Below, one piece after another: positions 977 to 21,019 of a stretch of DNA of 64,000 nucleotides. Positions within the stretch are counted from its first letter, which is position 1, and every line of letters starts with the position of its first letter. Under the pieces are notes generated by a model. The model did not search any database. It had not been told where the DNA came from and worked only from the letters and a program-made list of their open reading frames with translations. The DNA lies in the NCBI GenBank assembly GCA_041577335.1, contig JBFGJH010000002.1, positions 16,389 to 80,388 on the forward strand, written 5' to 3'. Position numbers and translations under genes: made by a program. Source of the stretch: Acidimicrobiia bacterium (GTDB taxonomy: Bacteria > Actinomycetota > Acidimicrobiia > Spongiisociales > JAENVV01).

Positions 977-1929
977 GCCCGTGATGGCCTCGTGCGCCGC
1001 CTCAGGTTCTTCCCCTTGGCTCGAGCTCGTTGCGCCTGCCATGTGAGCCATGCAGAGGCTGCGTGAGCCAGGCTGCCCGGGGTAGGCCGCCGGCCAGATA
1101 TCTCGTAGCCGAATGATGCCAAGGTCTTGCCGGCCAGCACCTCGAAGGTGGCGGCGTCTTTCGGCGACATCTGCTCCTTCCAATTGCGCAAGCCCTTGGT
1201 GGGCGGCAAAGCCAGCGACTGGTGGGCCGTGGGGTCGGCGGTCTCTGATCGAAGCTGTTCGCCCTGTTCGAAGTAGCGAAGCATTGCTGGATCGAAATCC
1301 AGCTCCAGGAACGGACTAAGTTCTCTCACGACTCTCTCGGGATCGGAAACCAGGTCTTCGTACTTCATTTCCCGGTATCGGTCTTTGCCCAGTTTGGCCC
1401 CCGACGACCGTCCGATGGTGACTCGGCGCTGCCAATAGAGCGCACCGGCGGGAACGTCTTTGGGCCCAAACTTGGTTTCCACATAGCTCAGGGCCACTGC
1501 CCGACCGTCCCGGATGACGTGCACGAACCGGGCTTCAGGAAACAGAACCGCAAGCCGTTCCATGTGCAAGACATAGCCCGGTGATTTGTCGCCGTAGCGA
1601 GCCTTGCCGCGCGCTGCTGCGTACTGCTGGAACACGCGTCTCACGGCGTCGGCGTAGTCGGCCGGGGGTCGATCGTGGAGGTCGGAAAGGAGCGCCCGTT
1701 CGTCGATTTCGAGACGGCGATAGTCGGGGATCCGGTTGAGATCGCGCACGAACATGTCAGCCGCGAATTTGCCGTCTTTGCCATACGGCCGGTCGGCGAG
1801 GCGGGGGATGAATTGTGACTCGTGGGTAATCGCCAGATCCGGATGGGCAGAGAAGATCGCTTGCACGAGCGTCGTGCCGGATCGGCCGGAGCCGATAAAG
1901 ATCGGGAACACGGGCTGCTGAGACGACAT
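973..1929 (-). CDS. Sulfotransferase (Stf0/Sulfotransfer_3-like)
   Basis: It carries FIGSGRSGTTLV as a P-loop-like PAPS motif and FVHVIRDGRAVALS as a 3'-PB-like region. It is the last gene of the minus-strand operon. Confidence 0.75.
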   Translation of the reverse strand: MSSQQPVFPIFIGSGRSGTTLVQAIFSAHPDLAITHESQFIPRLADRPYGKDGKFAADMFVRDLNRIPDYRRLEIDERALLSDLHDRPPADYADAVRRVFQQYAAARGKARYGDKSPGYVLHMERLAVLFPEARFVHVIRDGRAVALSYVETKFGPKDVPAGALYWQRRVTIGRSSGAKLGKDRYREMKYEDLVSDPERVVRELSPFLELDFDPAMLRYFEQGEQLRSETADPTAHQSLALPPTKGLRNWKEQMSPKDAATFEVLAGKTLASFGYEISGRRPTPGSLAHAASAWLTWQAQRARAKGKNLRRRTRPSRA

Positions 1930-6202: not shown

Positions 6203-7037
6203 CTGTCGCGCGATATCCGAGGGCCATCATTTCGGGGCGACACCGTTCTTCTATCCGCATCATGTTGGCGGTCCCGAAAAACTCGACGAGCGGAACGTTG
6301 CGATTGGCCCCTTTGGCCTGGAATTGCTGATCGACCGACGCGGAGATATCTCCGGCCATGGGGAGTCCGAGCTGCTCCGCCAATCTCGCGATGGCGGCGG
6401 TCTTGTTCGCCCGAAAATCTTCATAACGAATGAGCGTGATGTCGGCCTCGTGGTCGAGGTACACCCGGACCATATCGGCCCATCGATCGGCGATCGCTTC
6501 GAGGTAGGTACTGCGATCGAAACCGGGCCGACCTTCGCCAAGGATCAAGCGCCAAGGTTTGGGAATATCGGCCCACCGGTCTGCGGCGATGGCTTCGTCG
6601 TCACCGGCGAGATCGAGTCGGTCGAGGATGCTCCGGATGTTGTCGCGCGGGTCGCGAACCACGAATACGAACTGGGAATGCGGGAAGCGGTTGTGGAGAG
6701 CCGGGTAGATCAGTGTCAGGTTGGGGTGCTTGACGATTGGAGCCGCGAACTCGTCTCGGTTCCTTTTGATGAGGTCCTCGAGGTCGGCTTGGCCGGAAAC
6801 GATGCGGGGAATGATGAGGTCACGGATCTCCTGTTTGAGGTCGATCGTCACGTCCATGCCCGTTTGCTCACCGAGCAAGGCAGCAATGACCGAAGTGCCG
6901 GCTTTCTGGTGGCCCAGGATGAACACGGGCTGATGGCTCGGCGGGAGCGGTGGAGCGGTAAACGAACGCCATCGGGTGATCGCGGAGCGCCGGGCGCGTC
7001 CGGCGGCCGAGCGGATGCGGTGGGCAGTGATGGTCAT
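6186..7037 (-). CDS. Sulfotransferase family protein
   Basis: It has FILGHQKAGTS as the 5'-PSB P-loop and FVFVVRDPRDNIRS as the 3'-PB motif. I chose the start at MTITAH (the ATG at 7037), which overlaps the deacetylase stop by 4 nt. The longer ORF upstream of that is an out-of-frame overlap with the deacetylase gene. Confidence 0.75.
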   Translation of the reverse strand: MTITAHRIRSAAGRARRSAITRWRSFTAPPLPPSHQPVFILGHQKAGTSVIAALLGEQTGMDVTIDLKQEIRDLIIPRIVSGQADLEDLIKRNRDEFAAPIVKHPNLTLIYPALHNRFPHSQFVFVVRDPRDNIRSILDRLDLAGDDEAIAADRWADIPKPWRLILGEGRPGFDRSTYLEAIADRWADMVRVYLDHEADITLIRYEDFRANKTAAIARLAEQLGLPMAGDISASVDQQFQAKGANRNVPLVEFFGTANMMRIEERCRPEMMALGYRATGGTDA

Positions 7038-7858
7038 GGTCCGTCGTATTTGGTCAATCGGCGCCGCACATTCTCTTCCGTGCGTTGTCCCCGGCGCACC
7101 TTGCGTTTGAAGAAGATCACTCCATCGTCGAGCTGCACGGGGATCCGGTTGAGAAGGAGCGGGTCGCTGGCGCCGTCGATGGGCTGGCCCCCCCCGAGTA
7201 CTGCTGAGGCGTACTGTTCCCGAACCGCACTGTCGCATGATCGTGACCAGTAGCCCCACGGATAGGCGAAGTGGTCGGGCTTGACGCCGGTGCGGCGTTC
7301 GATGAGTTCGGTGGACAGGCCGATCTCTTCCTCTGCCTGTGGTGGTTCCAGCGTTCGGAAGTCCGGGTGGGTGTGGGTGTGGGCGCCGACGGTCACGAGA
7401 CCCGACTCCTGCATCGCATTGACCTGCTCCCAGGTGATCGGCGCCGATCGGCCGTCGTCCGACAACGGCGTCCGAGCTTCGATGGGGTGGCTGGTGAGGT
7501 AGACCGTGAATGGGATGTGGAATTCCTTGAGCAGTGGATAAGCGTTGCGGTACATATCGTCGTATCCGTCATCGAACGTGAGCACCACATGGTCAGCCGA
7601 GCCGGATTCCGCCCTCCGGTCGATCGCCTCCTCCAGGGGAAGGACCGAGAAGCCGGAGTTGGTCAAGTACTCGAGGTGACTACGGAAGTGGTCAGGGTCG
7701 AGGTCCATTTGTTTGCGGTTGCCGGCGCCGATTTGGTGATAGATGAGGATCCTGGGGCCTGGAAAGGCTCCCAAGGAAAGGTCGAGGAGCGAGAAGACCG
7801 TTTTGGCCGCCGCTCGGACGGGAGAGCCCATCAGGCGGATCCGCCGGAATCGAGCCAT
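7034..7858 (-). CDS. Polysaccharide deacetylase (CE4/NodB-homology)
   Basis: The NodB motifs are present: VVLTFDDGYDD, YLTSHPIEAR, a histidine cluster and HTHTHPDF. It is translationally coupled to the sulfotransferases on both sides. Confidence 0.85.
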   Translation of the reverse strand: MARFRRIRLMGSPVRAAAKTVFSLLDLSLGAFPGPRILIYHQIGAGNRKQMDLDPDHFRSHLEYLTNSGFSVLPLEEAIDRRAESGSADHVVLTFDDGYDDMYRNAYPLLKEFHIPFTVYLTSHPIEARTPLSDDGRSAPITWEQVNAMQESGLVTVGAHTHTHPDFRTLEPPQAEEEIGLSTELIERRTGVKPDHFAYPWGYWSRSCDSAVREQYASAVLGGGQPIDGASDPLLLNRIPVQLDDGVIFFKRKVRRGQRTEENVRRRLTKYDGP

Positions 7859-8754
7859 TGGAGGTCGTAGCCGAGGAGGGCAGCAAGGTGCTCGTTGTGT
7901 TGTCGGAAGACGTCGGCCAGATGCTCACGAATGCCCGTGTCCACGGCGAGGCTGTCGGCGCGCCCCGCTCTCCCATAGCTGTGATTGGCAAACTCGGGTG
8001 GGTGCCAGTCCTCGATTCCCAAGAACGATTCGATCGCCGAAAGGGCGTGCCGAGGGTCGGAGGTGAGGTCCTCGAACCGAACCACCATCATCTGGTCTTG
8101 GGGGTACCAGGCTTGCCACCGGATGAGCTGTTCGGCGTATTTGCCTCGCTCGACATAAGAGTACCGTCGCAGCGGCCGGGCGTGATACGTCGGGTCGTCG
8201 GCGATGCGCTCCATTTCTCGGGCAAGGCGCTCGTCCTCGCGCTGCAACGCCTCCTCGAGAGTCAGCGGTTCTTGGCCGAGGCGCCGATTGTGTCCGTATT
8301 GGGAAATCGCACGGTCGATGGGATTGCGAATGAGGGTGATGATCTTCGCTTCTGGGATCAGGTGGGCGGCCCGCTGCGCCGCCAGGGGATGCAAGAGGTA
8401 ATCGGGGGTCGCCTCGAACGCCAAGGTGGGTTGCGCGCGTCGCCTTGAACGGACAGTTCGGCTTGCGCTGAGTGGGAAATGTGCCCGGTACCAATCCTCG
8501 CCCTCGAGGAACCTCGTCGAGAAATACTCCACCTCCTTACGAAGCGATGGATACACCTGCGGATGTGCTCCGAGATATTTGTACAGCGAACTCGTCCCGG
8601 ACCGTTGGGCGCCGACGATGAGCAGGTCGGGGAGGCTGCGCGCCCGAGAAGTCAACTGGCGTGTGCGAACGCGGGTCTCGGCGAGCTGGCGGCGCCGTTT
8701 GGTCGGAGTCTTCTCCTTGATCCATCCAGCGATCGCTGGAGTCACCGCAGGCAC
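7831..8754 (-). CDS. Sulfotransferase family protein
   Basis: LLIVGAQRSGTSSLYKYL is the PAPS P-loop and ITLIRNPIDRAISQYGH is the 3'-PB motif. Confidence 0.8.
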   Translation of the reverse strand: MPAVTPAIAGWIKEKTPTKRRRQLAETRVRTRQLTSRARSLPDLLIVGAQRSGTSSLYKYLGAHPQVYPSLRKEVEYFSTRFLEGEDWYRAHFPLSASRTVRSRRRAQPTLAFEATPDYLLHPLAAQRAAHLIPEAKIITLIRNPIDRAISQYGHNRRLGQEPLTLEEALQREDERLAREMERIADDPTYHARPLRRYSYVERGKYAEQLIRWQAWYPQDQMMVVRFEDLTSDPRHALSAIESFLGIEDWHPPEFANHSYGRAGRADSLAVDTGIREHLADVFRQHNEHLAALLGYDLQWLDSGGSA

Positions 8755-8757
8755 GGC

Positions 8758-11124
8758 CTAGCGACCAGAGCTGGCGGTATCGTCGTAGGAGCTGAGACGC
8801 TGCTCTCGGGGAACCTGGGGGAGGGGCTCCATATCGTTGTATGGCCACTCTTTGATCCAGTCGACGACCGCTCGGGTGCGAGACACCGGAGTCGGATGGT
8901 TCGGGGACGCGCTGGTCGCGTCGATGGCTACCTGGTCGGTCTCGGGCGCAGAACGAGGCTTCTTCTTGGGGGGTGGCGCAGGCGGTTCGGATGGCACGTT
9001 GACGCTCTGGGGTTTCTGACTGGTGCGGCGCGAGGGTGCTGGTCCGGGTGACGATGCCGCTTCCTTCGCGGGTGCTGGCGCAGCGGGTGCTGGCACCTCG
9101 GCGGCCGGAGTATCGGATGGCTGGGCAGCCGGAACCGCGGGTGCAGGTGCGGTGGGCGCTGCGGCTTTCTTCTGCTTCTTTTCGGTTTTCTGTTCTTTCT
9201 TCTTGGCTCTGGTTGCCTTCTTGGTCTGGGTTGGACTGCTGGTCGTAGCTCGGCTCCCTTTGCGGCTCTTCGGGCGGAAGAAGTTGCGAATCCTGCCGAA
9301 GAACCCTGACGATGGTGAGCCGGTGAGCAGCGCCGCACCCAAGGCGGGAGCCAGCCCTGCATCGACGTCGGTAAGCAGTAGATCCAGGGCGGCGCGGCGG
9401 CTCACTCGCTCCAGGACCACGGCCACGACGCCGTCGACCCGCTGGCGGAGAGCCTGGGTGAGCTCGGCCGACGCAGGTGGCATGACTGCGAGGATGACGT
9501 CGAAGTGCTGACGAGCCGCGCTCATCAGATCAACGAAACCGTCGGTGAGCACAGCATCGGTGGCGTCGTCGATCATGCTCCCTGGGGCAACGACTCTCAG
9601 TTTCCTCTCCTCGGGCCCGTCGATCAGGGTTTCCTTGAAGTAGGAGTTGCCGGTCTCCCGGTCATTGCGCATGACCTGCAGGAGTTTGGAAACGGTTACG
9701 CCGCTGCTTCCTTCGTAGTGGACGGTGGTGTCGAAGTTCAGATCGACGACGAGGACGAAGCGGTCGGATGCGGCGAGGCGGTTGCCGATGTCGAGCGCCA
9801 AGATGCTCACTTCGCTGTCGTTGACGCTCACCCCAGACAGTCCGAGGACCAGCGTGGTAGGCGATGAATCGACATAGCGGAGTATTGCGTGGCGCATCTG
9901 GCGAACACCATCGGCGCGTTCGCCTGCCAATCGTCCCGAGCGGTCCGTGCTGGCGCGCCCCTTCGTCGTTGCTGCACTGGGCAGCTCGGCGATGACCGGC
10001 AGCGGAGCGATGTCGGTCGGCCCGTAGATATTGCCGCGAGCGCTCTTGGATGCAAAGAGCAGACCGACACCGAGCAGGGCCCCGGCCAGCAGTCCGAGAA
10101 CGGCGTTGAGTGGAGCGGAGACGGGCGACGGGGTGAGGTCCTCGACCTCGACGGGTACCAGGACCGCCGGAGTCTCGCTTTCCGCTTCGAGGAAAAGATC
10201 GCCGAACTCGGAGGTGAGGTCGCCGTAGCGGTCCTCGAGCGCGTCGAGCGTCAACTGATCGGTGAGACCTCCCTCCGGCACTTCGTCAGGTGTGACGTCG
10301 CGCGGATCCTGAGGCACGTTGGGCGCAGCCGGCGTTTGCGAACCTCCCTGGTTGCCCTGATTCGTCTGCGGCGTGATGTCTGCCGGGTTGAGTCCGTTCT
10401 CCAAAGCAATGACTACGAGCTCAGACCTGATCGCGGCCATCCGGAATTGGATGTCGTCGATCTGTTCTTGAATCTCCTCGGGGTCATCGACTCGTTCGTC
10501 GCCCGATTGCGCCAACACGAGGTTGACTTCGAGTTGGGTGAGCTGCTGGTCGAGGGCATCATGGAGGTCCTGGAGAGAATCGATACGAGCTTGGAGGGCG
10601 ACGCCGATGACTGGCTCCTCGACGATCAACTCGACCGGTGTCAGGCGTTCGATCTGTTGCAGGACTTCGGCAGCTTCGATGATGATCTCGTCGAGGCGTG
10701 CTTGGCGTTCATCGGCACGTGCTTGAGCCGTGCCGTTGACGTAGGCGGCGCGAAGGCTCTCGGAGGCAACCGCGGCCTCGGTCCGGTCTTCGCTTCTCGC
10801 CAAAAAGAGGAGTCGGAAGTTGGGCTCGTCGATGGCCAACTGGCCGACTCGTTGCTCGAGGGCGGTGGCGTTGTAGACACGTGCTTCTTCGGCGGCTGCC
10901 CTGACGAGTTCCAGCGTGGTGTCGCGACTCCGATCGCCCAGCTCCGATTCGAACTCGACGTAGGTGGTCGCCTCGAAGAGAGGTTTGATGGCTTGGTTGG
11001 CCCGCTCTGATATGGCGTACCCGAGCACTGCACCCACGAGCGCCAGCGCGACGACTGCCCACCACTTGCGGCGGACCATTCGAAAAAGACCTGTGAGAAC
11101 TTTCAAACCGCTCATACCCCCCAA
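8758..11124 (-). CDS. Polysaccharide co-polymerase / BY-kinase-like protein with degenerate Walker A and long K/A/P-rich tail
   Basis: An N-terminal TM helix is followed by a long coiled-coil periplasmic region and a second TM helix. The cytoplasmic domain is CpsD/Wzc-like (VLVVDLNFD and FDVILAVMPP), but the Walker A position reads GLSGVSVNDSEV, with no GKS/T. The C-terminal 150 aa or so is low complexity (KKATRAKKKEQKTEKKQKKAAAPTAPAPAVP and so on). Confidence 0.6.
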   Translation of the reverse strand: MGGMSGLKVLTGLFRMVRRKWWAVVALALVGAVLGYAISERANQAIKPLFEATTYVEFESELGDRSRDTTLELVRAAAEEARVYNATALEQRVGQLAIDEPNFRLLFLARSEDRTEAAVASESLRAAYVNGTAQARADERQARLDEIIIEAAEVLQQIERLTPVELIVEEPVIGVALQARIDSLQDLHDALDQQLTQLEVNLVLAQSGDERVDDPEEIQEQIDDIQFRMAAIRSELVVIALENGLNPADITPQTNQGNQGGSQTPAAPNVPQDPRDVTPDEVPEGGLTDQLTLDALEDRYGDLTSEFGDLFLEAESETPAVLVPVEVEDLTPSPVSAPLNAVLGLLAGALLGVGLLFASKSARGNIYGPTDIAPLPVIAELPSAATTKGRASTDRSGRLAGERADGVRQMRHAILRYVDSSPTTLVLGLSGVSVNDSEVSILALDIGNRLAASDRFVLVVDLNFDTTVHYEGSSGVTVSKLLQVMRNDRETGNSYFKETLIDGPEERKLRVVAPGSMIDDATDAVLTDGFVDLMSAARQHFDVILAVMPPASAELTQALRQRVDGVVAVVLERVSRRAALDLLLTDVDAGLAPALGAALLTGSPSSGFFGRIRNFFRPKSRKGSRATTSSPTQTKKATRAKKKEQKTEKKQKKAAAPTAPAPAVPAAQPSDTPAAEVPAPAAPAPAKEAASSPGPAPSRRTSQKPQSVNVPSEPPAPPPKKKPRSAPETDQVAIDATSASPNHPTPVSRTRAVVDWIKEWPYNDMEPLPQVPREQRLSSYDDTASSGR

Positions 11125-11303
11125 AGCAGACGAAGAGACGGACTGCCGCCTCTCACGCCACCGCCACTCTAGCCCACCTTGTCGCCCAAGTCACGAGGCC
11201 GATCTATATACCTCTCTTAACCCTCACGGCGTTGGGCGCTTAACCCACTGGTGGATAGGTTTCTCCCTAGTGGGTAGGGAGGTTCGAGACAGTCTGGCGC
11301 CGA

Positions 11304-13055
11304 TTGATCCCCGTTGCGGCGCCCCAACAATCGATGAGGTCGCTCCCCATGTCCCTTCCCATCAATCCCCGGCTGGTAGTCGCAATCGCACTCACGTTAG
11401 GTGCTTTTGCGCTCGCTTTTGGTGGCATCCAGGCAAACGCCGCCACGGTCGTCCAGATCTCCGGCGAGGTTTCCTACCCGCAGTCGACCACCGTCACATC
11501 AGACGAGGTGCTTCGCTTCGATCCCGCCCAAGACACGACGCTGGAGGTGAGCGGGAACCTCGTCATCGAGGGGACGCTCGAGATGAAACCCAATAAGGGC
11601 GTGACGCACACGCTCCGGTTCCTCGCGGTCAATGAGGCCGGCATGGTCGGCGGCGGGATGCAGGTGCTCGAATCCGATCGCGGGCTCTGGGTCGTGGGAA
11701 GCGGACAGCTCGACCTGCACGGCGAAGAAACAGTGGGTTGGAATCGCACCGGGACGGATTCCACGTGGAGCTCGAGCGACGACCTGAGGATCGCCCCCTA
11801 CCTCGCAGGTGATTACGCGTCCGGAGGATTCGACTCCTTTGCGCTCGGTTCGCCCGTGCCGGTCGCCGATCCCACACTTCCCCCAACAGAGGTCATGAAT
11901 CTGACCCGGTCGGTCAACATCGAAGGTACGCCGGGGGGACGATCCCATGTGATCGTCATGAGCTCCCAGCCGCAAGAGGTTCGCTACGCCACGTTCCGGT
12001 ACATGGGACCACGCCAGGACTCCGAGGGCGTGATGGGCAGGTATCCGATCCATTTCCACATGAACGGTGACAGCTCCCGAGGATCGATCGTCGAAGGAAA
12101 TGTGGTCCGTGAGTCAGGAAATCGCGGCATCGTCGTTCACGCGTCGCATGGCGTGATCGCACGGGGCAACGTGATCTATGACGTAGTCGACGACCCATTC
12201 TGGTGGGACCTCGGTGAGGAGAACGCCTCCCACGACGTGGTATTGGAGGGCAACCTCGCAGGTCTGGTCAAGAACGACCCCAAGAAACAGGGCTACACCC
12301 TGTCGGCATTCCACCTCGGTCGCGGTGAAGGCAACGTTGCCAACGGGAACGTTGCAGTGGGCGTCCAAGGCAACAAGAACTGCTCTGGCTTCAACTGGCC
12401 GAGTCAAGGGAGCGGCCTGTGGGAGTTCCAGGACAACGTTGCCCACAACAACAAGTGTCACGGCATCTTCGTGTGGCAGAACAGCTCCGCCAACCACCTC
12501 ATCGAGGATTTCATCGCCTACCGCAACGGGTCTACCGGCGTGAATCACGGGGCTTACACCAATGACTATGTCTACGAGAACCTCTACTTGTTCGAAAACC
12601 TGGAATACGGCGTGGTCAGCCACGCGTTCTCGCACCCGCCGCGTTCAGGGCAGCTCCAGCAAACCTGGTCGTGCGTCACAGTCGTCGGCTCGCCAGTCGG
12701 CCTGTCGGTTTCGGTTTCCAACGCCCCCGAGTTCGGGCATCCGGCGTTGTTCGACCATTTCACGGTGATCGATACGCCGGTGGCCACGCATGTCGAGCAA
12801 AACGCACTCGAAAACGGCCAGACGCTCGAAACAAGGGTGACGTTGGTGAACTTCAATGTTCCATGTGTCGGATCGCCGGTCCCTGATCCTGACGAGCCTG
12901 ATCCTGACGAGCCTGATCCTGACGAGCCTGATCCTGATCAGCCTGATCCTGATCAGCCTGATCCTGACGAGCCTGATCCTGACGATCGGCCGGAGCGGCC
13001 CGACCGGCCGCAACGTCCGCCCCGTGGTCCACGGTGGATATCGGGTACTCCGTAA
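11304..13055 (+). CDS. Secreted right-handed parallel beta-helix protein with C-terminal (PDPDEP)n tail (putative glycan hydrolase/lyase)
   Basis: It has a signal peptide (VVAIALTLGAFALAFGGIQANA) and repeated beta-helix rungs (NVVRESGNRGIVVHASHGV, NVAHNNKCHGIFVWQNSS). It is a paralogue of the next gene. The start could instead be the ATG at 11334 or 11349. Confidence 0.65.
   Translation: MIPVAAPQQSMRSLPMSLPINPRLVVAIALTLGAFALAFGGIQANAATVVQISGEVSYPQSTTVTSDEVLRFDPAQDTTLEVSGNLVIEGTLEMKPNKGVTHTLRFLAVNEAGMVGGGMQVLESDRGLWVVGSGQLDLHGEETVGWNRTGTDSTWSSSDDLRIAPYLAGDYASGGFDSFALGSPVPVADPTLPPTEVMNLTRSVNIEGTPGGRSHVIVMSSQPQEVRYATFRYMGPRQDSEGVMGRYPIHFHMNGDSSRGSIVEGNVVRESGNRGIVVHASHGVIARGNVIYDVVDDPFWWDLGEENASHDVVLEGNLAGLVKNDPKKQGYTLSAFHLGRGEGNVANGNVAVGVQGNKNCSGFNWPSQGSGLWEFQDNVAHNNKCHGIFVWQNSSANHLIEDFIAYRNGSTGVNHGAYTNDYVYENLYLFENLEYGVVSHAFSHPPRSGQLQQTWSCVTVVGSPVGLSVSVSNAPEFGHPALFDHFTVIDTPVATHVEQNALENGQTLETRVTLVNFNVPCVGSPVPDPDEPDPDEPDPDEPDPDQPDPDQPDPDEPDPDDRPERPDRPQRPPRGPRWISGTP
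12883..12990 (+). repeat. 18-bp tandem repeat (cctgatcctgacgagcct x6, minor variants) encoding PDPDEP/PDPDQP
   Basis: The repeat is directly visible in the sequence. It is in frame within the CDS 11304..13055. Confidence 0.9.
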
Positions 13056-13250
13056 TCGAAATCTCCCGGCCTGCCTGAACTCTCGCCGACTTGTTGCACG
13101 TTTAACTAAAGCGGGGAGCCTGGTTAACCGATGCTGCATGAGGGTTCAGGCGGGCTGAGGGGCAACACACATCTCCCAAGATGGGAGTGTCGCCCGCACA
13201 GGAACAGCCCACCCGGGCAAACCCAGAAAACCACGAGAGGTCGTTCTCCC

Positions 13251-15362
13251 ATGTCGTACGCCGCGAGGTTCCCCAGACTCGCTGTCAGCGTCGTATTCGT
13301 ATTGCTGGCGGCGCTCATCGCCATAGTCGGTTGGTCGCGGTCCGCCGACGCCGCGGCTGTCACAGAGGTGTCCGGTGATGTGTCCTACTCGGCCAGTACG
13401 ACAATCGCCGCCGGAGAAGTGCTGAAGTTCGATCCAGCCAAGGACACAACCCTCGAGGTCAGCGGCAACCTGGTCATCGCCGGGACCCTCGAGATGAAAC
13501 CCAACAACGGAGTCACTCACACCCTTCGATTTCTCGGCGTCGATGAGTCGAGCTTCATCGGTGGCGGCGTCGAGGTACTCGAATCTGACCGGGGACTGTG
13601 GGTGACCGGAGCGGGCAAACTCGACTTGCAGGGCGAAGAAAAGACAGGCTGGAACCGGACCGGAACCGATGCCACCTGGAAGTCGAGCGACGAACTGAAG
13701 ATCGCTCCCTATCAGATGGGTGACTATGCGGTAGATGGCTTCGACTCCTTCAGCCTGGGGTCATCGGTTCCAAAGGCCGACCCGTCTCTGCCCGCCACAG
13801 AGGTCATCAACCTCACTCGCTCAGTCAATATCGAGGGGACAAGCGGAGGAAGGTCGCACGTGACCATCATGAGCTCGGTCCCCCAAGAGGTGCGATACGT
13901 CGCGTTTCGTCACATGGGGCCCCGCCAGCCCGACGGTGACGGCGATACCGAGGGCGTGATGGGCCGCTATCCGCTGCATTTCCACACGACGGGAGACGGG
14001 TCGCGAGGGTCCGTCGTCGAAGGAAACGTCGTTCGCGACTCGGGCCACCGCGGCATTGTCGTCCACCTCTCCAACGGTGTGACTGTCTCCGACAACGTCA
14101 TCTACGACGTCTACGACGACGTGTTCTGGTGGGATCTCGGAGAAGAGAACGCCAGCGACGATGTCGTGTTCGAGGACAACTTCGTGGGTCTGGTGAGGAC
14201 CGACCCCGTGAACCAAGGTTTCACGCTCAGCGGATTCCATCTCGGTCGCGGTGAAGGCAACGTTGCCAACGGCAACGTGGTTGTGGCCGTCCTAGGCAAC
14301 AAGAACTGTTCCGGGTTTCAGTGGCCGAGCCAGGGCAGTGGGCTCTGGGAGTTCCAGGACAACGTTGCCCACAACAACAAGTGTCACGGCATCTTCGTGT
14401 GGCAGAACAGCTCCGCCAACCACCTCATCGAGGATTTCATCGCCTACCGGAACGGCACCGCGGGCGTGAGTCACGGCGCCTACACCAACGACTACGTCTA
14501 CGAAGACGTCTATCTCTTCGAGAACGAAGAGATGGGCATCATCAGTCACGCGTTCTCACACCCACCGCGGACGGGCCAGATGCAGCAGACGTGGTCATGC
14601 GTCACGGTGGTTGGCTCCCCAGTCGGCCTGACAGTGGCAGTTTCGAATGCCCCCGAGGTCGGGGATCCGGCCATCTTCAATTACTTCAAGACGGAGGACA
14701 CCCCCGTCCTCTACGAGGTCCAAGAAGCCGCCCTGGACAAGGGACAAACCATCGACGCGCGGGCAACCTTCAACAACCTGAACGTGGACTGCCCCGCCGG
14801 TGGCTTCAGCGGAACGGTCGTCGGCGAGGGCATCTTTGTCGACGATGACGCTTCGCCGCACGAAGCCAACATCGAGCTCATCGCCGAGGCCGGGATAACC
14901 GTGGGTTGCAATCCTCCCGACAACGATATGTTTTGCCCTGGTGACCCGGTGACGCGGGCGCAGATGGCGACGTTCCTCGCCCGTGCATTGGCTCTGCCGG
15001 CTCCATCGAACGACTACTTCAGAGATGATGATGCCTCGACCCATGAAGGCGGGATAAACGCCCTTGCGGCGGCCGGGATCAGCAGCGGATGCAACGAGGC
15101 AAACACCAACTACTGCCCCGGTGACCATGTGACGAGAGCGCAGATGGCCAGCTTCCTCGCACGAGCGCTGAACCTTCCCGCCGATTCTGCGAACTGGTTC
15201 GTCGATGACGACAAGTCGTCGCACGAAGCGAACATCAACGCGTTGGCGTCCGCCGAGATCACCTCGGGATGCAAGCCGGCTGATCGCCTGTTTTGCCCGG
15301 CCGACTCGGTAACCCGAGCCCAGATGGCGACGTTCCTGGTGAAGGCACTGAATCTCAACTAA
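13251..15362 (+). CDS. Secreted parallel beta-helix protein with three C-terminal SLH domains
   Basis: It has a signal peptide (VVFVLLAALIAIVGWSRSADA) and a beta-helix core about 80% identical to the upstream paralogue. Three C-terminal repeats of about 55 aa (F.DDD.S.HE..I..LA.AGI..GC....FCP...VTRAQMA.FL..AL.L) match the S-layer-homology domain pattern. Confidence 0.7.
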   Translation: MSYAARFPRLAVSVVFVLLAALIAIVGWSRSADAAAVTEVSGDVSYSASTTIAAGEVLKFDPAKDTTLEVSGNLVIAGTLEMKPNNGVTHTLRFLGVDESSFIGGGVEVLESDRGLWVTGAGKLDLQGEEKTGWNRTGTDATWKSSDELKIAPYQMGDYAVDGFDSFSLGSSVPKADPSLPATEVINLTRSVNIEGTSGGRSHVTIMSSVPQEVRYVAFRHMGPRQPDGDGDTEGVMGRYPLHFHTTGDGSRGSVVEGNVVRDSGHRGIVVHLSNGVTVSDNVIYDVYDDVFWWDLGEENASDDVVFEDNFVGLVRTDPVNQGFTLSGFHLGRGEGNVANGNVVVAVLGNKNCSGFQWPSQGSGLWEFQDNVAHNNKCHGIFVWQNSSANHLIEDFIAYRNGTAGVSHGAYTNDYVYEDVYLFENEEMGIISHAFSHPPRTGQMQQTWSCVTVVGSPVGLTVAVSNAPEVGDPAIFNYFKTEDTPVLYEVQEAALDKGQTIDARATFNNLNVDCPAGGFSGTVVGEGIFVDDDASPHEANIELIAEAGITVGCNPPDNDMFCPGDPVTRAQMATFLARALALPAPSNDYFRDDDASTHEGGINALAAAGISSGCNEANTNYCPGDHVTRAQMASFLARALNLPADSANWFVDDDKSSHEANINALASAEITSGCKPADRLFCPADSVTRAQMATFLVKALNLN

Positions 15363-15410
15363 CCAAAACTCGCCCTATGGGTTGGCCTTGTCGCCGCTTA
15401 TGCTGGCGTC

Positions 15411-16847
15411 GTGGTGATCGACGACAAGGAAGCAGCGAAGCCGGGGTTGGCAGCGTTCGTTCCGAGCCAAACCGCCCCGCCGCGTCTGCCGTGGGGCCTC
15501 TGGGCCATCCTGGCTGTGCTCTTCATGGCCTTGGTCGGTTCGTTTGCCTTCGGCGCTACCGAAGCAGGAACGTTCGCGCTTCTCATCCTCCTGGCGTTTC
15601 CGATTGCACTCATGGCCAAGAACGCCGCCAGCCCACTCGATTCGCAATGGATACCGAATTGGATCATGGCGGGTTGGGCGGCCAAGCTGGCAGCTTCGAT
15701 CGGCCGTTATTGGGCGCTCGAGGTTTTGTACAACGGTGTCGGTGATGCCACCGGGTATCACAATTTCGGAACTCGCTACGCCGACATGTGGCGAGCGTTG
15801 GAAGTCCCGCCCTTCGGGACCGGAACCGAATTCATCCAATGGGCCACCGGCGTGCTCTACATTCCGTACACGCCGACCAAGCTCGGCGGGTTCGTGCTGT
15901 TCGCCACGATTGCCTTCGTCGGACAGATCTTGCTCTATCTGGCGTTTCGGCGAGCCCGGCCCCATGCAAGGCTCAAATGGTACGCCGGACTGATCTTCTT
16001 CTTCCCGAACATCGTCTACTGGCCTTCCAGCATCGGCAAAGAGTCGCTGATGATCTTCTTCATCGGCATCGCCGCCTACGGAGCCGTGAGGATGTTTGCC
16101 GAGTACCAGGCGATGTGGATGGCTGTGGTGGCCATCGGGCTGGTGGGCACCGGCGTGATTCGATCGCATATTGCCCTACTCATCATCGGGTCGCTGACGG
16201 TGGCAGTTGTCTTTGGAAGGGGCCCAGAGAACGCCCCCGCCCGAATGCGGCGCCTCATCTCGGCGGTCGTTGCCGTGATCTTGTTGGTTGGCGTGGGAGC
16301 GTGGGCAATCCAAGACTTTGGCATCGATCTCAGTAGCGGTGTCAGTGACGAACTTCTCACCGAGGAGCTCGACCCGATCTTCGCAGGCGTCGAAGAGCAG
16401 ACCGACAAGGGCGGCTCGGCCGTCGAGGGCAGCGCCATCCGCTCGCCGCTCGATGTTCCCGAAGCCGTGCTGCGGGTTGTGTTTCAGCCACTTCCGTGGG
16501 ATGCCCACAACACTCAGGCGCTGGTGAACAGCTTTGTCGAGGGCATGTTCCTGCTGTTGCTGTTCATATGGAGGCTTCCCGCCATAGCGCGGGGCTTCTT
16601 CCGGAAGGCGCGAGACCCGTATGTGATGTTTTCGCTCGTGTATACGGCAGGGTTCATCTTTGGGCACAGCGCGGTCCTGAATCTCGGCATCATGGCTCGG
16701 CAACGGTCTCAGCTCATTCCGTTCGTGCTGGTGATCCTCGTTGCGATGGGAATGAACGACTCGGGGAAAGACGTTGCCGAGCTCGAAGACACGTCGGCCA
16801 AATCGCCATTACCACCCAAGACACTTGTGGTCGTAGAATCGCCCTAG
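15411..16847 (+). CDS. Polytopic integral membrane protein, putative glycan polymerase/ligase or GT-C-like
   Basis: It has ten or more predicted TM segments, a large central loop (DLSSGVSDELLTEELDPIFAGVEEQTDKGG) and sits within the glycan locus. I recognise no specific family motif. Confidence 0.35.
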   Translation: MVIDDKEAAKPGLAAFVPSQTAPPRLPWGLWAILAVLFMALVGSFAFGATEAGTFALLILLAFPIALMAKNAASPLDSQWIPNWIMAGWAAKLAASIGRYWALEVLYNGVGDATGYHNFGTRYADMWRALEVPPFGTGTEFIQWATGVLYIPYTPTKLGGFVLFATIAFVGQILLYLAFRRARPHARLKWYAGLIFFFPNIVYWPSSIGKESLMIFFIGIAAYGAVRMFAEYQAMWMAVVAIGLVGTGVIRSHIALLIIGSLTVAVVFGRGPENAPARMRRLISAVVAVILLVGVGAWAIQDFGIDLSSGVSDELLTEELDPIFAGVEEQTDKGGSAVEGSAIRSPLDVPEAVLRVVFQPLPWDAHNTQALVNSFVEGMFLLLLFIWRLPAIARGFFRKARDPYVMFSLVYTAGFIFGHSAVLNLGIMARQRSQLIPFVLVILVAMGMNDSGKDVAELEDTSAKSPLPPKTLVVVESP

Positions 16848-17033
16848 TGCTCGGAGATACCGAGCACCGAATCGAGCGACGCAGCACTGGTATTCGTGTG
16901 AATCCGTTGCTACGCTCGGTGGCAAGGGATTGGGACTGTGAACAGATCGGGGTCGCTCCGCTGGCTATCGACAACGCCACCTGAGCGGGCATCTTCTGGT
17001 CCCACTCACGACACGTAAAGAGGGGTTATTGAC

Positions 17034-18284
17034 GTGAGAACACAGGTTGCCATTGTTGGGGGTGGTCCGGGAGGCGCGGCGAGCGCGCTTTTCCTGGGGG
17101 AGCACGGCATCGACTCGATCATCATCGAAGCTGAGTCGTTTCCGCGGTTTCATATCGGCGAATCGATGACTGGTTGGGTCGCCGAGAAGATACGCGGATG
17201 GGGCCTCGAATCCGCCATGAAAGAGAACCGTTTTCCGATCAAACGAGCCGGCACCGTCTACGGGTCGTCGGGTTCGAACCGGTACGACGTGCCCATCACC
17301 GCACGGGTGGCCGGCACCGAGCGCCGACAGGTGGAGACGTGGCAGGTTCGCCGGTCCGTGTTCGACAAGATGCTCTTGGACGTTGCTGTCGAGCGGGGCG
17401 CCCGGCTGGTACACGGGAAAGCCATCGAACCGATCTTCGACGACGAGGGCGCTGTCTCGGGAGTCACCGTGCAGCTGGCGTCGGGCGATACCACCACGAT
17501 CGAGGCCGACGGCATCATCGACGCATCCGGACGCAAGACCTGGATGTCGAGCCTCGGCTTCGCAGGCAAGAAGGAACGCGGCGGTTACGAGAGCCAGATC
17601 GCTGTCTTCAGCCATGTGAAGGGGGGGATCCGCAACGGTGAGATGGAGGAGGGAAACACGCTGCTGTTCTACCGAGAGGTCGATCACTGGTCGTGGTTCA
17701 TTCCCGTCGACGACGAGACCGTGTCCATTGGAATCGTCACTCCTGCGTCCTATTACAAGTCGATGAAGGAATCCAAAGAAGAGTTCTTTGCTCGCGAATG
17801 TCGCGAGCTGAATCCCAACCTGGCCGAACGCCTGGCAGATGTCGAATTGGTGGAACCGGTGACGGCCACCGCCAACTTCTCCTACAAGATTCCCGAATTC
17901 ACGGGCAAGGGCTGGATGTGCGTCGGTGATGCCCACCGATTCATCGACCCGTTCTTTTCGTTTGGCATCCACCTTGCATTGTCGGAAGCTGAGAAGGCAG
18001 CCGAATACATGGCGTCCTATCTCGGCGGTGAGTTGGACGGCGCCGACCCGTTCGCTGAGTATGCAGCTATATGCGAGCGAGGGATGGATACCGTGCAAAC
18101 GCTGATGGACTCCTTCTGGGCCAATCCGCTCGGCTGGGGCTACATGCTCCACTACACGGATCACGGGGGCGACGTGCTCGACATGTTCGGCGGCCGCATC
18201 TACGAGGAGGAGCCGCTTCCGGCGTTGCTTTCGATGCGTGAGATGGTGGCCCGCTCGGACAGAGGACTCGTTCCCGTTTCGTAG
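17034..18284 (+). CDS. Flavin-dependent halogenase-like FAD monooxygenase
   Basis: It has the FAD motif IVGGGPGGAASA, a WxWxIP motif (HWSWFIPV) and an FxxPxxSxG motif (FIDPFFSFG), which together diagnose flavin-dependent halogenases. The start codon is GTG, preceded by the RBS agagggg. Confidence 0.65.
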   Translation: MRTQVAIVGGGPGGAASALFLGEHGIDSIIIEAESFPRFHIGESMTGWVAEKIRGWGLESAMKENRFPIKRAGTVYGSSGSNRYDVPITARVAGTERRQVETWQVRRSVFDKMLLDVAVERGARLVHGKAIEPIFDDEGAVSGVTVQLASGDTTTIEADGIIDASGRKTWMSSLGFAGKKERGGYESQIAVFSHVKGGIRNGEMEEGNTLLFYREVDHWSWFIPVDDETVSIGIVTPASYYKSMKESKEEFFARECRELNPNLAERLADVELVEPVTATANFSYKIPEFTGKGWMCVGDAHRFIDPFFSFGIHLALSEAEKAAEYMASYLGGELDGADPFAEYAAICERGMDTVQTLMDSFWANPLGWGYMLHYTDHGGDVLDMFGGRIYEEEPLPALLSMREMVARSDRGLVPVS

Positions 18285-18296
18285 CGGTCGCACGCC

Positions 18297-19445
18297 ATGG
18301 ATTTCTCAATAACCCAAGAGCAACAGGCGTTCCGCGAGTCGATCTTGGGGTTCGGGCGCGACTACCTCGACTATGACATGGTCGACCATGACGACCAGCA
18401 CCGGTTCAACAGTGATGCCTGGAAGAGGTGTGCCGAGTTCGGCATTCAGGGCTTGTGCGTACCCGAGGAATACGGTGGCCAGGAGGCCGATCCGATCACG
18501 ATCATCCTGGCGATGGAGGCGCTCGGCTACGCCTGCCGCGACAACGGTCTGCTGTTCTCCCTGAACGCTCAGATGTGGTCGGCGGAGATACCGATCATCC
18601 GGTTCGGCAATGAAGAACAGAAACAGAGGTACCTGCCCGGCCTCGTCGATGGCAGCATCGTGGGTGTGCAAGGTATGTCCGAGCCGGATGCTGGGTCCGA
18701 TGCGTTCGGAAGCATGGCGACCTCCGCAGTGGTCGACGGCGATGACTACGTCATCAACGGCTCGAAGACGTGGATCACCAATGCGCCGATCGCCAACATG
18801 TTCGTTCTGTTCGCGGTGACCGACGCATCGAAAGGCTCGTTTGGGTTGTCTGCTTTCTTGATCGATCGGGATACGCCTGGGCTCACCGTAGGCGCTCCTT
18901 TCAAGAAGATGGGGCTTCGCACCTCACCGATGAGCGAGCTGGTGTTCTCCGATTGCCGGGTACCGGCGACCAGCCTGTTGGGAAAACCCGGCTCGGGCAT
19001 GGCGATCTTCAACCATTCGATGGATTGGGAACGGGGCGTGATCCTCGCCAGTTCAGTCGGAACCATGCAACGCCAGCTCGAAACGTCGGTCGCCTATGCC
19101 AAAGAGCGGAAACAGTTCGGTCAGGCCATCGGCAAGTTCCAAGCTGTATCGCACCGTCTCGTCGACATGAAGGTGCGGCTCGAGGCTGCCCGCCTGCTCC
19201 TGTACCACCTCGGGTGGTCGATGACCCAGCGCACGTCCAACAACATGGAATCGGCGATGGTCAAGCTCTTCTTGTCGGAGGCTTTCGTGCAATCGAGCCT
19301 CGACACGATTCAGACGCACGGCGGGATGGGATACATGGCCGAAGCGGGTATCGAGCGCGAGCTCAGAGACGCGATCGCCGGCCGGATCTACTCCGGGACG
19401 TCCGATATCCAGAAGAACCTGATCGCCCGTCATATGGGCCTGTGA
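18297..19445 (+). CDS. Acyl-CoA dehydrogenase family protein
   Basis: It has the ACAD fold signatures GMSEPDAGSD, TKTWITNA and YSGTSDIQKN. Its stop overlaps the start of the next gene (TGATG). Confidence 0.85.
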   Translation: MDFSITQEQQAFRESILGFGRDYLDYDMVDHDDQHRFNSDAWKRCAEFGIQGLCVPEEYGGQEADPITIILAMEALGYACRDNGLLFSLNAQMWSAEIPIIRFGNEEQKQRYLPGLVDGSIVGVQGMSEPDAGSDAFGSMATSAVVDGDDYVINGSKTWITNAPIANMFVLFAVTDASKGSFGLSAFLIDRDTPGLTVGAPFKKMGLRTSPMSELVFSDCRVPATSLLGKPGSGMAIFNHSMDWERGVILASSVGTMQRQLETSVAYAKERKQFGQAIGKFQAVSHRLVDMKVRLEAARLLLYHLGWSMTQRTSNNMESAMVKLFLSEAFVQSSLDTIQTHGGMGYMAEAGIERELRDAIAGRIYSGTSDIQKNLIARHMGL

Positions 19446-21019
19446 TGGCTCATCTCCTACATGGTCTTCTGGAAGCCTCCTGTGAGAGTGATCCGACCCG
19501 CGTAGCCGTCGTGGACGGGGAGCGGCGCTACACCTACGAAGAGCTGGACGGCGACGCCAACCGCGTCGCCCATCTGCTGATCGAGGCGGGCGTTCGACCC
19601 GGTGATCGAGTCGGCCTGTATCTCGACAAGTCCCTGGAAGCGGTGGTAGCCATCTATGGGATCCTCAAGGCGGGCGCTGTCTACGTTCCCCTGGACTCGC
19701 GGGCTCCGGCGATTCGCTTGAGCTACATCGTGCGCGACTGCGGTATCCGCCATCTCGTCACCATGTCCAAGCTGGAGAATGGCTGGTCGGATATGGCCGC
19801 AGAAGGGGTTCCGCTCGAGACCATCGTGGTGATGGACGGCGCCGGAGAGCTGACTCCCATCGACGGGATGACCTTCCGTGACGGTGCCGTCCTTGGTGGC
19901 TATTCCCCAGATCGGCCCGGGGTTCGAAGAATCGACGAGGACCTCGCCTACATCCTCTACACGTCCGGGTCGACTGGCGCTCCCAAGGGAGTGATGCTGT
20001 CGCATCGCAACGCCCTCGCTTTTGTGGAATGGGCGAGAGACGAGGTGGGCCTCACGGCCGACGACCGGCTTTCCAGTCACGCACCCTTCCACTTCGACCT
20101 TTCGACCTTTGACCTGTTCTCTGCGGCGGCGGCCGGCGCGTCGGTCACCCTCGTCCCTCGGGCAACATCGGTCTTCCCGATCGAGGTTGCCCGCTTCATC
20201 GACCGCCACGAGATCACGGTGTGGTATTCGGTGCCGTCGATCCTCTCGCTGCTCACACAGCACGGCAACCTCGCCGAGGGAGCGCTGCCCTCGCTTCGCA
20301 CCGTGATCTTCGCCGGCGAAGTGTTCCCATCGAAATACCTTTCATCGCTCATGGCACAGCTCCCGGACGTGGAGTTTCACAACTGGTACGGCCCGACCGA
20401 GACAAACGTGTGCACTGCCTTCCGGGTGTCCGAGCCGCCGGCTCCCGACGGCGGGGACATTCCCATAGGCAAGGCCATCGCAAACGTTGAGACGTTCGTG
20501 GTTGGCGAGGACGGCACCCTGGTTCCGCCAGGAGAGCGGGGCGAGCTGTATGTGCGGGGCGCCACCGTCATGCACGGTTACTGGGGAGATCCAGAGAAGA
20601 CAGCCGCCCGCCTGGTGGCCCACCCACGCGGAGCCGGCACCACCGATCTGGCATATGCGACGGGCGATCTCGTGTCAGAACTGCCGTCTGGCGACTACAA
20701 GTTTCTGGGACGCAAGGACCATCAGATCAAGAGTCGCGGCTACCGGATCGAACTGGGAGAGATCGAGACGGCGCTGAACGCTCATCCCGGCGTCAAAGAG
20801 GCCGTGGTGGTTGCCATCCCCGACGACGTCGTGTCGAACCGTATCCGCGCCTACGTGGTGGTCAGCGGGGACGAGACCAAAAACGAGCTGGTGGCTTGGT
20901 GTGGGGAACGGGTTCCCAAATACATGATCCCTGAATCCTTCGATTTCGAGGATGTGCTCCCCAAGACCTCAACCGGCAAGATCGACCGCCAAGCTCTCCA
21001 GACAGCCGCCACCTCGTAG
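19445..21019 (+). CDS. Stand-alone adenylation enzyme (AMP-binding, amino-acid-activating type)
   Basis: The core A-domain motifs are present: A3 LAYILYTSGSTGAPKG, A4 FDLS, A5 NWYGPTETN, A7 YATGDL, A8 GRKDHQIKSRGYRIELGEIE and A10 PKTSTGKIDR. No PCP or condensation domain follows. The upstream N-terminal part of the 749-aa six-frame ORF is an overlap artefact. Confidence 0.85.
   Translation: MAHLLHGLLEASCESDPTRVAVVDGERRYTYEELDGDANRVAHLLIEAGVRPGDRVGLYLDKSLEAVVAIYGILKAGAVYVPLDSRAPAIRLSYIVRDCGIRHLVTMSKLENGWSDMAAEGVPLETIVVMDGAGELTPIDGMTFRDGAVLGGYSPDRPGVRRIDEDLAYILYTSGSTGAPKGVMLSHRNALAFVEWARDEVGLTADDRLSSHAPFHFDLSTFDLFSAAAAGASVTLVPRATSVFPIEVARFIDRHEITVWYSVPSILSLLTQHGNLAEGALPSLRTVIFAGEVFPSKYLSSLMAQLPDVEFHNWYGPTETNVCTAFRVSEPPAPDGGDIPIGKAIANVETFVVGEDGTLVPPGERGELYVRGATVMHGYWGDPEKTAARLVAHPRGAGTTDLAYATGDLVSELPSGDYKFLGRKDHQIKSRGYRIELGEIETALNAHPGVKEAVVVAIPDDVVSNRIRAYVVVSGDETKNELVAWCGERVPKYMIPESFDFEDVLPKTSTGKIDRQALQTAATS

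Follow-up and report, generated by a model that had tools for sequence, protein, structure and literature searches.

Two tandem paralogous genes in the stretch of DNA analyzed here (64,000 nucleotides of an Acidimicrobiia bacterium, contig JBFGJH010000002.1, positions 16,389 to 80,388 of the forward strand; hereafter the window) encode secreted beta-helix proteins of the CEMIP/TMEM2 type. We consider it probable, although far from settled, that these putatively Sec-exported proteins are enzymes forming the extracytoplasmic processing module of an ABC-transporter-dependent locus for a sulfated glycan. A previous sequence-only reading of the window had described a tandem paralogous pair on the plus strand, and both open reading frames (ORFs) are present where it placed them. 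However, its starts, taken from the longest ORFs (11304, TTG; 13131, ATG), are replaced here by 11349 and 13251, which are most likely the true starts on sequence grounds and match NCBI products of 568 and 703 amino acids (aa). The features of the pair on which the argument depends are as follows.

11349-13055, plus strand: copy 1 (P0001), ORF for a 568-aa secreted CEMIP-type beta-helix protein without SLH domains; identical NCBI record
11349-11441, plus strand: Sec-type signal peptide of copy 1, MSLPINPRLVVAIALTLGAFALAFGGIQANA then ATVV; a lone N-terminal hydrophobic segment at residues 9-27, then A-N-A
12036-12059, plus strand: GRYPIHFH motif of copy 1 (R231, Y232, H235, H237), invariant over 82 members and aligning to MGRYPVHFH of TMEM2
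13251-15362, plus strand: copy 2 (P0002), ORF for a 703-aa secreted CEMIP-type beta-helix protein with three C-terminal SLH domains; NCBI record
13251-13352, plus strand: Sec-type signal peptide of copy 2, ending in GWSRSADA, then AAVT; a hydrophobic segment at residues 10-28, then A-D-A
13962-13985, plus strand: GRYPLHFH motif in the sequence of copy 2

The family assignment is carried by both sequence and fold comparisons. Pfam PF24606 (CEMIP_beta-hel) matches copy 1 with 62.3 bits and copy 2 with 56.9 bits, against a gathering cut-off of 27.3, and is precomputed on most of the homologs. The ectodomain of human TMEM2 (8C6I) was the only PDB sequence match, with an E value of 3e-5 for the single sequence and 1e-18 for the family profile. 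The AlphaFold2 (AF2) model of copy 1, obtained from an alignment of 82 homologs, forms about ten three-strand coils of a right-handed beta-helix (pLDDT 94.8, pTM 0.91), and Foldseek ranked TMEM2 first among its matches (8c6i_A, E 8.5e-11, prob 1.00, TMq 0.60), the next ones having E values of about 1e-5. These later matches include the K1 capsule lyase, P22-type tailspikes, the AlgE4, AlgE6 and AlgG epimerases, GH110, and PL6, with E values of 1e-5 to 1e-4 for 7w1c, the P22 tailspike, PL6, and GH110. The beta-helix proposed by the sequence-only reading is thus predicted by the model as well, with polysaccharide-active structural neighbors. Its suggestion of a lyase or GH28-type enzyme held only in part: the fold is akin to that of polysaccharide-active proteins, but the family is CEMIP/TMEM2 (PF24606).

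Membership in the PL1/3/6/9, GH28, and GH110 sequence families was rejected because neither copy has a Pfam match to pectate lyase, GH28, or related families, and the generic Beta_helix and NosD models remained below cut-off. NCBIfam returned generic parallel-beta-helix repeat matches only, and the matches of the BFVD fold search, all with low TM scores, were generic beta-helices of phage depolymerases or tailspikes; therefore, no specific viral relative is indicated. The G8 domain (PF10162) had no match at E ≤ 0.1 in the two window proteins and is precomputed on several homologs (P0046, P0079, P0089, P0098, P0099, and P0109); in TMEM2, the G8 domain belongs to the beta-helix (PMC10206443). 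The mature domain comprises about 480 aa, has no inserted or C-terminal lectin (GG) domain, and aligns to TMEM2 over the beta-helix coils only. On alignment and predicted fold, the two proteins are minimal bacterial homologs of the CEMIP/TMEM2 beta-helix, consisting of a G8-like cap and parallel beta-helix repeat (PbH1) coils without GG. The family is large, with 2,019 representatives of 50%-identity clusters at E ≤ 1e-30, and is centered on metagenome-assembled genomes (MAGs) of Acidimicrobiia and Actinomycetota, with cultured carriers among Kitasatospora spp., Wenjunlia tyrosinilytica, Minicystis rosea DSM 24000, Tahibacter soli, and Chitinophagaceae. Source names of its members are all either "hypothetical" or mis-annotations. 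The NCBI MAG record of one 62%-identical homolog (P0010) reads "manganese catalase family protein, partial," with the CEMIP beta-helix as the only domain on record, and this name is probably a mis-annotation. A literature search on bacterial CEMIP/G8 homologs found nothing relevant.

Across the 82 homologs (38-72% identity), 26 columns are invariant, among them R231, H235, H237, H264, D287, W350, H366, W376, and Y403, and all 26 residues are kept in both window copies. The motifs aligned to TMEM2 are LTRN.xIxG, an invariant histidine, GRYPxHFH, and VH..G of the next coil, so that the R-Y-P-x-H-F-H block and the next-coil histidine are held in common despite an overall identity of 13%; the blocks AHNN, FVWQN, and HGAY of the C-terminal half gave no hidden Markov model alignment to TMEM2. 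According to the strand register of the model, three successive coils carry H200, H235/H237, and H264 at or beside their first strands, and D287 comes in the coil after these; residues of a substrate groove or of a metal site would be expected to be placed in this way. The ratio of nonsynonymous to synonymous substitution rates (dN/dS) was 0.04-0.13 for all ortholog and paralog pairs and therefore indicates strong purifying selection on both copies.

The genomic context points in the same direction, as the pair lies in a polysaccharide locus of about 1-33 kb. It encodes four sulfotransferases, an ABC-2 Wzm/Wzt transporter, several GT4 glycosyltransferases, a CE4 deacetylase, and a Wzz/PCP-like protein, together with a WecA-type initiating transferase, a CapD-type 4,6-dehydratase, an epimerase, GNAT acetyltransferases, and a SulP sulfate permease. 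The sulfated-polymer context claimed previously is upheld by the sulfotransferases, ABC-2 transporter, GT4 enzymes, and deacetylase around the gene pair. The deacetylase and the sulfotransferases have no export signal, which fits cytoplasmic steps dependent on 3'-phosphoadenosine-5'-phosphosulfate (PAPS), whereas the beta-helix proteins do have signals; no genes for PAPS synthesis (CysC/CysDN) were seen in the window. The neighbors most relevant here are listed below.

98-976 (plus), 973-1929 (minus), 6186-7259 (minus), 7831-8754 (minus), 31108-33006 (plus): four sulfotransferases and a SulP/STAS sulfate permease
7034-7858, minus strand: cytoplasmic CE4 polysaccharide N-deacetylase, PgaB/IcaB-like by NCBIfam, adjoining the sulfotransferase at 7831-8754
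8758-11124, minus strand: Wzz/PCP-like protein with two transmembrane segments (residues 21-39 and 341-359) and weak Wzz and weak tyrosine kinase (BY-kinase) matches, a divergent neighbor
15411-16847, plus strand: orphan 478-aa polytopic membrane protein with a GT-C fold (STT3/PglB/AftA/ArnT-like; AF2 pLDDT 89.7), directly downstream of copy 2

This arrangement is conserved beyond the window. L001 (ENA ERZ25039499 contig_24690), a related assembly that likewise has the pair in tandem and is about 78% identical in nucleotides, and the more distant L002 and L003 (63% identity) all have the beta-helix gene between the PCP-like gene, which is syntenic in the three, and the GT-C gene, with sulfotransferase, ABC-2 transporter, GT4, and CE4 deacetylase genes close by. 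L002 and L003 have the same arrangement with a single beta-helix gene, flanked on one side by sulfotransferases, ABC-2, GT4, deacetylase, and PCP genes and on the other by genes for the 470-aa membrane protein, an acyl-CoA dehydrogenase (ACAD), and an AMP-ligase. In L004, an Acidimicrobiia chromosome of 3.7 Mb (43% identity), the arrangement is preserved in part, and the beta-helix gene stands beside an ABC transporter, a sulfotransferase, an ACAD, and an AMP-ligase. Furthermore, neighbors were counted by tblastn with the window proteins within 10 kb of the family gene at 83 loci, which gave GT4 at about 35 loci, the CE4 deacetylase at about 22, sulfotransferases at about 16, the membrane protein of 15411-16847 at about 14, and the ABC-2 transporter at about 13. 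The synteny from L001 to L004 and at many GTDB loci supports the claim that the beta-helix gene is a conserved component of the sulfated-glycan locus.

Taken as a sequence of events, the proposal would run as follows. A tandem duplication that preceded the split from the L001 lineage produced the gene pair, and short-tract gene conversion between the copies continues, having most recently homogenized 104 nucleotides (nt) in the most conserved block. The locus would assemble and sulfate an amino-sugar-containing glycan in the cytoplasm, the ABC transporter would export it, and the exported polymer would bind the beta-helix face that, in the model, bears the invariant polar ladder (H200, R231/Y232, H235, H237, H264, and D287). 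Most probably, the bound polymer would then be cut outside the membrane, for chain-length control or release, or it would be otherwise modified. Copy 2 would be fixed to the wall by its three SLH domains, and copy 1, with its acidic PD-repeat spacer and basic tail, would be free or loosely bound to the anionic polymer. Regarding the chemistry, a His/Asp ladder with no paired invariant carboxylates makes us lean towards elimination, epimerase-like, or metal-assisted catalysis.

Several observations weigh against this proposal. The clustering of the invariant His and Asp residues on one face is deduced from strand register only, and D287 is the sole invariant acidic residue near the His ladder, which is atypical of a two-carboxylate glycoside hydrolase. 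No activity data for bacterial members were found in the literature; for the animal proteins, the active site is unassigned and the catalytic residues are not named (PMC10206443, PMC12423501), and the activity of human TMEM2 itself is disputed, being reported as lacking in two studies (PMC10206443, PMC10276149), contrary to a third (PMC10474455). About half of the family loci, Kitasatospora among them, had none of the above neighbors by tblastn, and the family is therefore broader than, and not exclusive to, this type of sulfated-glycan locus. Finally, the 64 kb of the window contain no UDP-sugar 6-dehydrogenase and hence no evidence for the uronic acids that a lyase would need.

Three other functions have to be weighed against polymer cleavage. 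It is unlikely, in our judgment, that the two proteins are non-catalytic surface proteins (S-layer-like, adhesin, or scaffold), perhaps serving as acceptor glycoproteins for the adjacent GT-C enzyme. The SLH anchoring of copy 2 would suit such a role, as would the co-occurrence of the beta-helix gene with the neighboring orphan membrane protein of STT3/PglB/AglB-like GT-C fold and the reported inactivity of human TMEM2 in the two studies above (PMC10206443, PMC10276149). However, the polar residues are invariant across thousands of homologs and across kingdoms and are under strong purifying selection, which is unusual for fast-evolving S-layer or adhesin proteins; moreover, most members have no anchor (57 of the 84 loci hold a single SLH-less copy), no conserved glycosylation sequon was seen, and the NLTR motif is not N-containing in TMEM2. 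The possibility that the proteins modify the polymer without cutting it, as C5-epimerases of the AlgG/AlgE type acting in the wall space, seems quite improbable to us. GAG (glycosaminoglycan)-type sulfated polymers often bear epimerized uronic acids, the significant fold matches include AlgE4, AlgE6, and AlgG (2pyg, TMt 0.46; 5lw3, 0.45; 4ozy, 0.41), weak Pfam NosD/Beta_helix (CASH-type) matches exist, and an invariant His/Asp/Tyr set rather than paired carboxylates would suit proton abstraction. Against these points stand the absence from the window of a dehydrogenase that would form uronic acids and the lack of an evident DPHD-type motif of AlgG/AlgE; in addition, TMEM2, and not the epimerases, is the closest relative by far.

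A third possibility, that the pair encodes catabolic or competitive depolymerases directed at foreign polysaccharides (environmental sulfated glycans or the matrix of another organism), appears very unlikely. Secreted beta-helix depolymerases are common in foraging, and many family members (for example, those of Kitasatospora, Minicystis, and Chitinophagaceae) are not beside biosynthetic genes by tblastn, but in the present clade the position of the gene inside the biosynthetic locus is fixed down to 43% identity, and no sugar-uptake or catabolic genes are adjacent. Extracytoplasmic processing of the locus's own sulfated glycan by a CEMIP/TMEM2-type beta-helix thus remains the reading that we prefer.

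It is important to consider how the pair compares with known systems. CEMIP (HYBID/KIAA1199) and TMEM2 (CEMIP2), animal hyaluronan-depolymerizing proteins, belong to the same Pfam family and give the best sequence and fold match (8C6I). They resemble the bacterial proteins in a G8-like N-terminal cap continuous with the PbH1 beta-helix, in the LTRN..I.G, GRYPxHFH, and next-coil His motifs, and in being extracellular and associated with a glycosaminoglycan-type polymer. In contrast, the animal proteins have 1,300-1,400 aa and GG/lectin-like domains, to which all activity-abolishing TMEM2/CEMIP mutations map (PMC10206443), whereas the bacterial ones have about 500 aa without GG. Furthermore, TMEM2 is held by a transmembrane helix, while the anchored bacterial copy uses SLH domains and is encoded in a biosynthetic locus, its presumed substrate being a sulfated bacterial glycan and not hyaluronan. 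By analogy, the closest functional counterparts are locus-encoded depolymerases of the VexL type. VexL is a beta-helix Vi-antigen lyase found in ABC-transporter-dependent capsule loci of Burkholderiales (PMC6003464); it likewise combines a right-handed beta-helix encoded in an ABC-transporter-dependent polysaccharide locus with export by a signal peptide, and it acts during or after export on the product of its own locus, as the present proteins may do by analogy. However, VexL is a homolog of pectate lyases and works in a Gram-negative periplasm, whereas the proteins described here are CEMIP-family members that occur as a paralogous pair, wall-anchored or free, in a presumably monoderm host. 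A dedicated extracytoplasmic enzyme in a biosynthetic operon is also found with the hydrolases or lyases AlgL, PslG, PelA, and BcsZ and with the C5-epimerases AlgG/AlgE, the last being beta-helices as well, but no sequence family is held in common with these exopolysaccharide-locus enzymes, the folds of AlgL, PslG, and BcsZ differ, and alginate-type genes are absent here.

The two proteins end differently at their C-termini, where the relevant features are these.

12882-12985, plus strand: 15-nt tandem repeat with 6.9 units encoding an acidic (PDPDE/Q)n linker in copy 1 (Tandem Repeats Finder score 180, 95% matches)
12986-13052, plus strand: basic Pro/Arg-rich C-terminal peptide of copy 1, RPERPDRPQRPPRGPRWISGTP, conserved in the L001 ortholog (ending RPPRGPRWITGTP)
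14835-15359, plus strand: three SLH repeats of copy 2, starting at 14835, 15018, and 15198 (Pfam SLH 1.1e-13, three stretches)

The SLH match is confined to copy 2 (Pfam 51.3 bits against a cut-off of 20.8), and a profile match to the SLH structures of Bacillus anthracis Sap (6bt4/3pyw) corroborates the three C-terminal SLH domains reported from sequence; the PDPDEP repeat tail ascribed to copy 1 is likewise found, as the 15-nt repeat listed above. The three-repeat C-terminal module of copy 2 is like that of SLH-anchored Gram-positive surface enzymes, such as glycoside hydrolases that bear SLH domains. It departs from the Sap type in the two conserved Cys of each repeat (G-C-x8-9-C-P), which are unusual for SLH domains, are also present in the L001 ortholog (L001 11585-12109), and suggest a possible disulfide within each repeat. 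For the pathway of a pyruvylated secondary cell-wall polymer, no PS_pyruv_trans (csaB pyruvyltransferase) gene was found among about 55 scanned genes of the 64-kb window. At the place of the PDPDE units of copy 1, its L001 ortholog has a (PGD)n linker, while the last 13 residues are conserved (PPRGPRWI[ST]GTP).

The SLH-less copies of the window, L001, and L051 (7583-9418 and 9600-11477) close with an acidic Pro-Asp or Pro-Gly-Asp repeat and, after it, a short basic stretch rich in Pro and Arg, and by sequence comparison these ends arose independently in unrelated clades. Consequently to be considered for copy 1 is an association of its tail with the anionic polymer, which this composition may favor over plain shedding. 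A tandem pair of one SLH and one SLH-less gene occurs in 8 of the 13 multi-copy loci, in varying gene order, and, by pairwise identity, duplication took place independently at least three times (in the window/L001 clade, the L017/L018/L036/L037/L044 clade, and L051). This recurrent pairing supports two differently localized forms and, with its repeated independent anchored and unanchored copies, suggests a functional division of labor at the cell surface. The earlier notion of cell-bound and released forms is therefore retained for the pairing and softened for copy 1, which is possibly polymer-bound via its basic tail.

Divergence between the two copies is interrupted by one tract of complete identity, located as follows.

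12420-12523, plus strand: gene-conversion tract on the copy 1 side, 104 nt identical to 14346-14449, spanning the invariant AHNN (H366) and FVWQN (W376) blocks
14346-14449, plus strand: gene-conversion tract on the copy 2 side, 104 nt identical to 12420-12523

The tract encodes WEFQDNVAHNNKCHGIFVWQNSSANHLIEDFIAY. Over the core, the copies are 79% identical in protein and about 74% identical in nucleotides outside the tract in a codon-level alignment, so that the "about 80% identity" of the sequence-only reading holds for the protein and not for the DNA once a nucleotide-level alignment is made. The identical tract of about 100 nt that it described is real and exactly 104 nt long, although its copy 2 coordinates (14341-14443) are displaced by about 5 nt and give no match as stated. 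Among degenerate codons for the same amino acid, 32 of 32 are identical within the tract, compared with 50% elsewhere, and the product of per-amino-acid codon matches gives P ~3e-8 for the tract identity. The longest identical run in 10,000 permutations of codon columns was 62 nt, against the 104 nt seen, and a conservative estimate based on the divergence of the tract in other pairs gives P ~1e-4 to 7e-4 (~1e-4 at lambda = 9).

Comparison with L001 places these numbers in time. Orthologs of the two genomes are 84-85% identical in protein and paralogs 70-74%, and the duplication is therefore older than the split of the two genomes. Within the tract, the two window copies differ at 0 of 102 sites, whereas 9-11 of these sites differ in every other pair among the window and L001 genes; the synonymous divergence (pS) amounts to 0 for the former and to 0.36-0.51 for the latter. 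The parsimony-informative tract sites split 6:0:0 (grouping by genome, by orthology, and crosswise), while those over the whole core comprise 44 for genome, 75 for orthology, and 14 for the third topology, counts that suggest background concerted evolution or a shared mutational bias. From these sequence patterns, a recent short-tract gene conversion in the lineage of the window is the conclusion we draw, as had been suspected previously. At the nine tract sites where the L001 paralogs differ, the window is copy 2-like at five and copy 1-like at four as read from the alignment, and hence the donor copy is not decidable. Synonymous sites are saturated (dS 1.5-2.3), and a date for the duplication is therefore not obtainable from dS.

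That the identity is instead an artifact of MAG assembly or polishing, or the outcome of extreme purifying selection plus codon bias, is highly improbable. The window does derive from a MAG, and the tract, with its many two-fold-degenerate, C-ending codons, coincides with the block most strongly conserved in the family (AHNN...FVWQN, with invariant H366, G372, and W376), which is why its nucleotide identity reaches about 90% in every pair of the four sequences compared with 72-79% elsewhere. However, this conservation does not explain the complete identity of the two window copies, because this block retains 9-11 differences over 102 sites in the other pairs (P ~1e-4) and all six informative tract sites group by genome. 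Typical reads and k-mers exceed the tract in length, and its flanks diverge immediately and normally, which makes an assembly collapse unlikely; furthermore, the independent assembly L001 shows raised paralog similarity at the same place, without identity. Short-tract gene conversion between tandem bacterial paralogs is known, for example, from tuf genes and surface-protein families, and the present case is like these in its short identical tract within diverged copies and its phylogenetic incongruence, but only one short recent tract is found, with no sign of a programmed variation system. Gene conversion between these paralogs is ordinary, textbook biology.

The more interesting parts of the locus are the CEMIP link and the nearby deacetylase/sulfotransferase pair resembling NDST. 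The sulfotransferase at 7831-8754 (minus strand) has as its best PDB match the N-sulfotransferase domain of heparan sulfate (HS) NDST1 (1nst, E 2e-24), followed by HS 3-O-sulfotransferases, and its pairing with the CE4 deacetylase gene is kept in L001-L003. These sequence matches suggest a split bacterial counterpart of NDST and an N-sulfated, GAG-like polymer; efforts exist to build bacterial NDST activity (PMC13353177). A more ambitious extension, in which Acidimicrobiia make a GAG-like N-sulfated polymer with a split NDST and remodel it with minimal CEMIP/TMEM2 proteins, the beta-helix being a core ancestral to the animal hyaluronan-depolymerizing family and sufficient for catalysis by itself, and its His-His-His-Asp ladder (GRYPxHFH and the following coils) marking the active or metal site of CEMIP/TMEM2, is speculative, and we would rate it as doubtful. 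Bacterial sulfated polysaccharides are rare and sought after, and this locus type is conserved across many uncultured Acidimicrobiia, for which no report on sulfated polysaccharides was found in the literature. Whether and how CEMIP and TMEM2 cleave hyaluronan is unresolved, and results for human TMEM2 conflict (PMC10206443, PMC10276149, PMC10474455, PMC12423501); a bacterial core of 480 residues that has the most conserved motif and is without lectin domains would offer a tractable model for this question.

The regions upstream of the two copies bear on their starts and expression. A Shine-Dalgarno-like element, GAGGTCG(C/T)TC, precedes both starts and is conserved upstream of all four genes, those of the window and those of L001. 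The intervals 11150-11348 and 13056-13250 have in common a TTAACC-containing element and the same GAGGTCG..CC-ATG ribosome-binding context, and the duplication therefore took in the regulatory region. Each upstream region is conserved with that of its own L001 ortholog, and on this sequence evidence a separate promoter for each copy is probable. The upstream regions of the two copies showed no sigma-70-like consensus, the promoter and terminator scan gave nothing exceeding shuffle expectation, and an Rfam scan of 10500-17200 gave no match. The signal peptides and their cleavage sites were read from the sequence as a hydrophobic segment followed by AxA, and their presence in both copies agrees with the predicted secretion of both proteins. 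Three further ORFs (12645-13139 and 14595-15224 on the minus strand, 12856-13158 on the plus strand) overlap the two genes and the repeat and were taken as non-genes.

Some neighboring genes have features of their own. The orphan membrane protein of 15411-16847 has no Pfam or NCBIfam match, and its top Foldseek matches are all GT-C enzymes (STT3, PglB, AglB, AftA, DPY19, and ArnT; prob 1.00, TMq 0.36-0.45). With invariant residues K92, R99, Y107, D112, Y116, R251, and H253, it seems, from the predicted fold, to represent an undescribed GT-C family without the periplasmic domain of oligosaccharyltransferases. The NLTR and ENAS motifs of the beta-helix proteins were considered as N-glycosylation sequons for this enzyme and rejected, their positions not being conserved across the family or in TMEM2. 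The sulfotransferase at 973-1929 (ST2, minus strand) is closest to tyrosylprotein sulfotransferases and the CurM sulfotransferase and not to carbohydrate sulfotransferases. The PCP/Wzz-like protein has a marginal BY-kinase match (TIGR01007, E 0.005) and a low-complexity tail of about 200 aa rich in Lys, Ala, and Pro. After the glycan genes, the plus-strand interval 17034-21019 holds genes for a FAD-dependent halogenase/geranylgeranyl-reductase-like protein, an acyl-CoA dehydrogenase, and an AMP-binding protein (acyl-AMP ligase); these still neighbor the beta-helix gene in the 43%-identical L004, a conservation that suggests a possible lipid or acyl moiety on the product of the locus.

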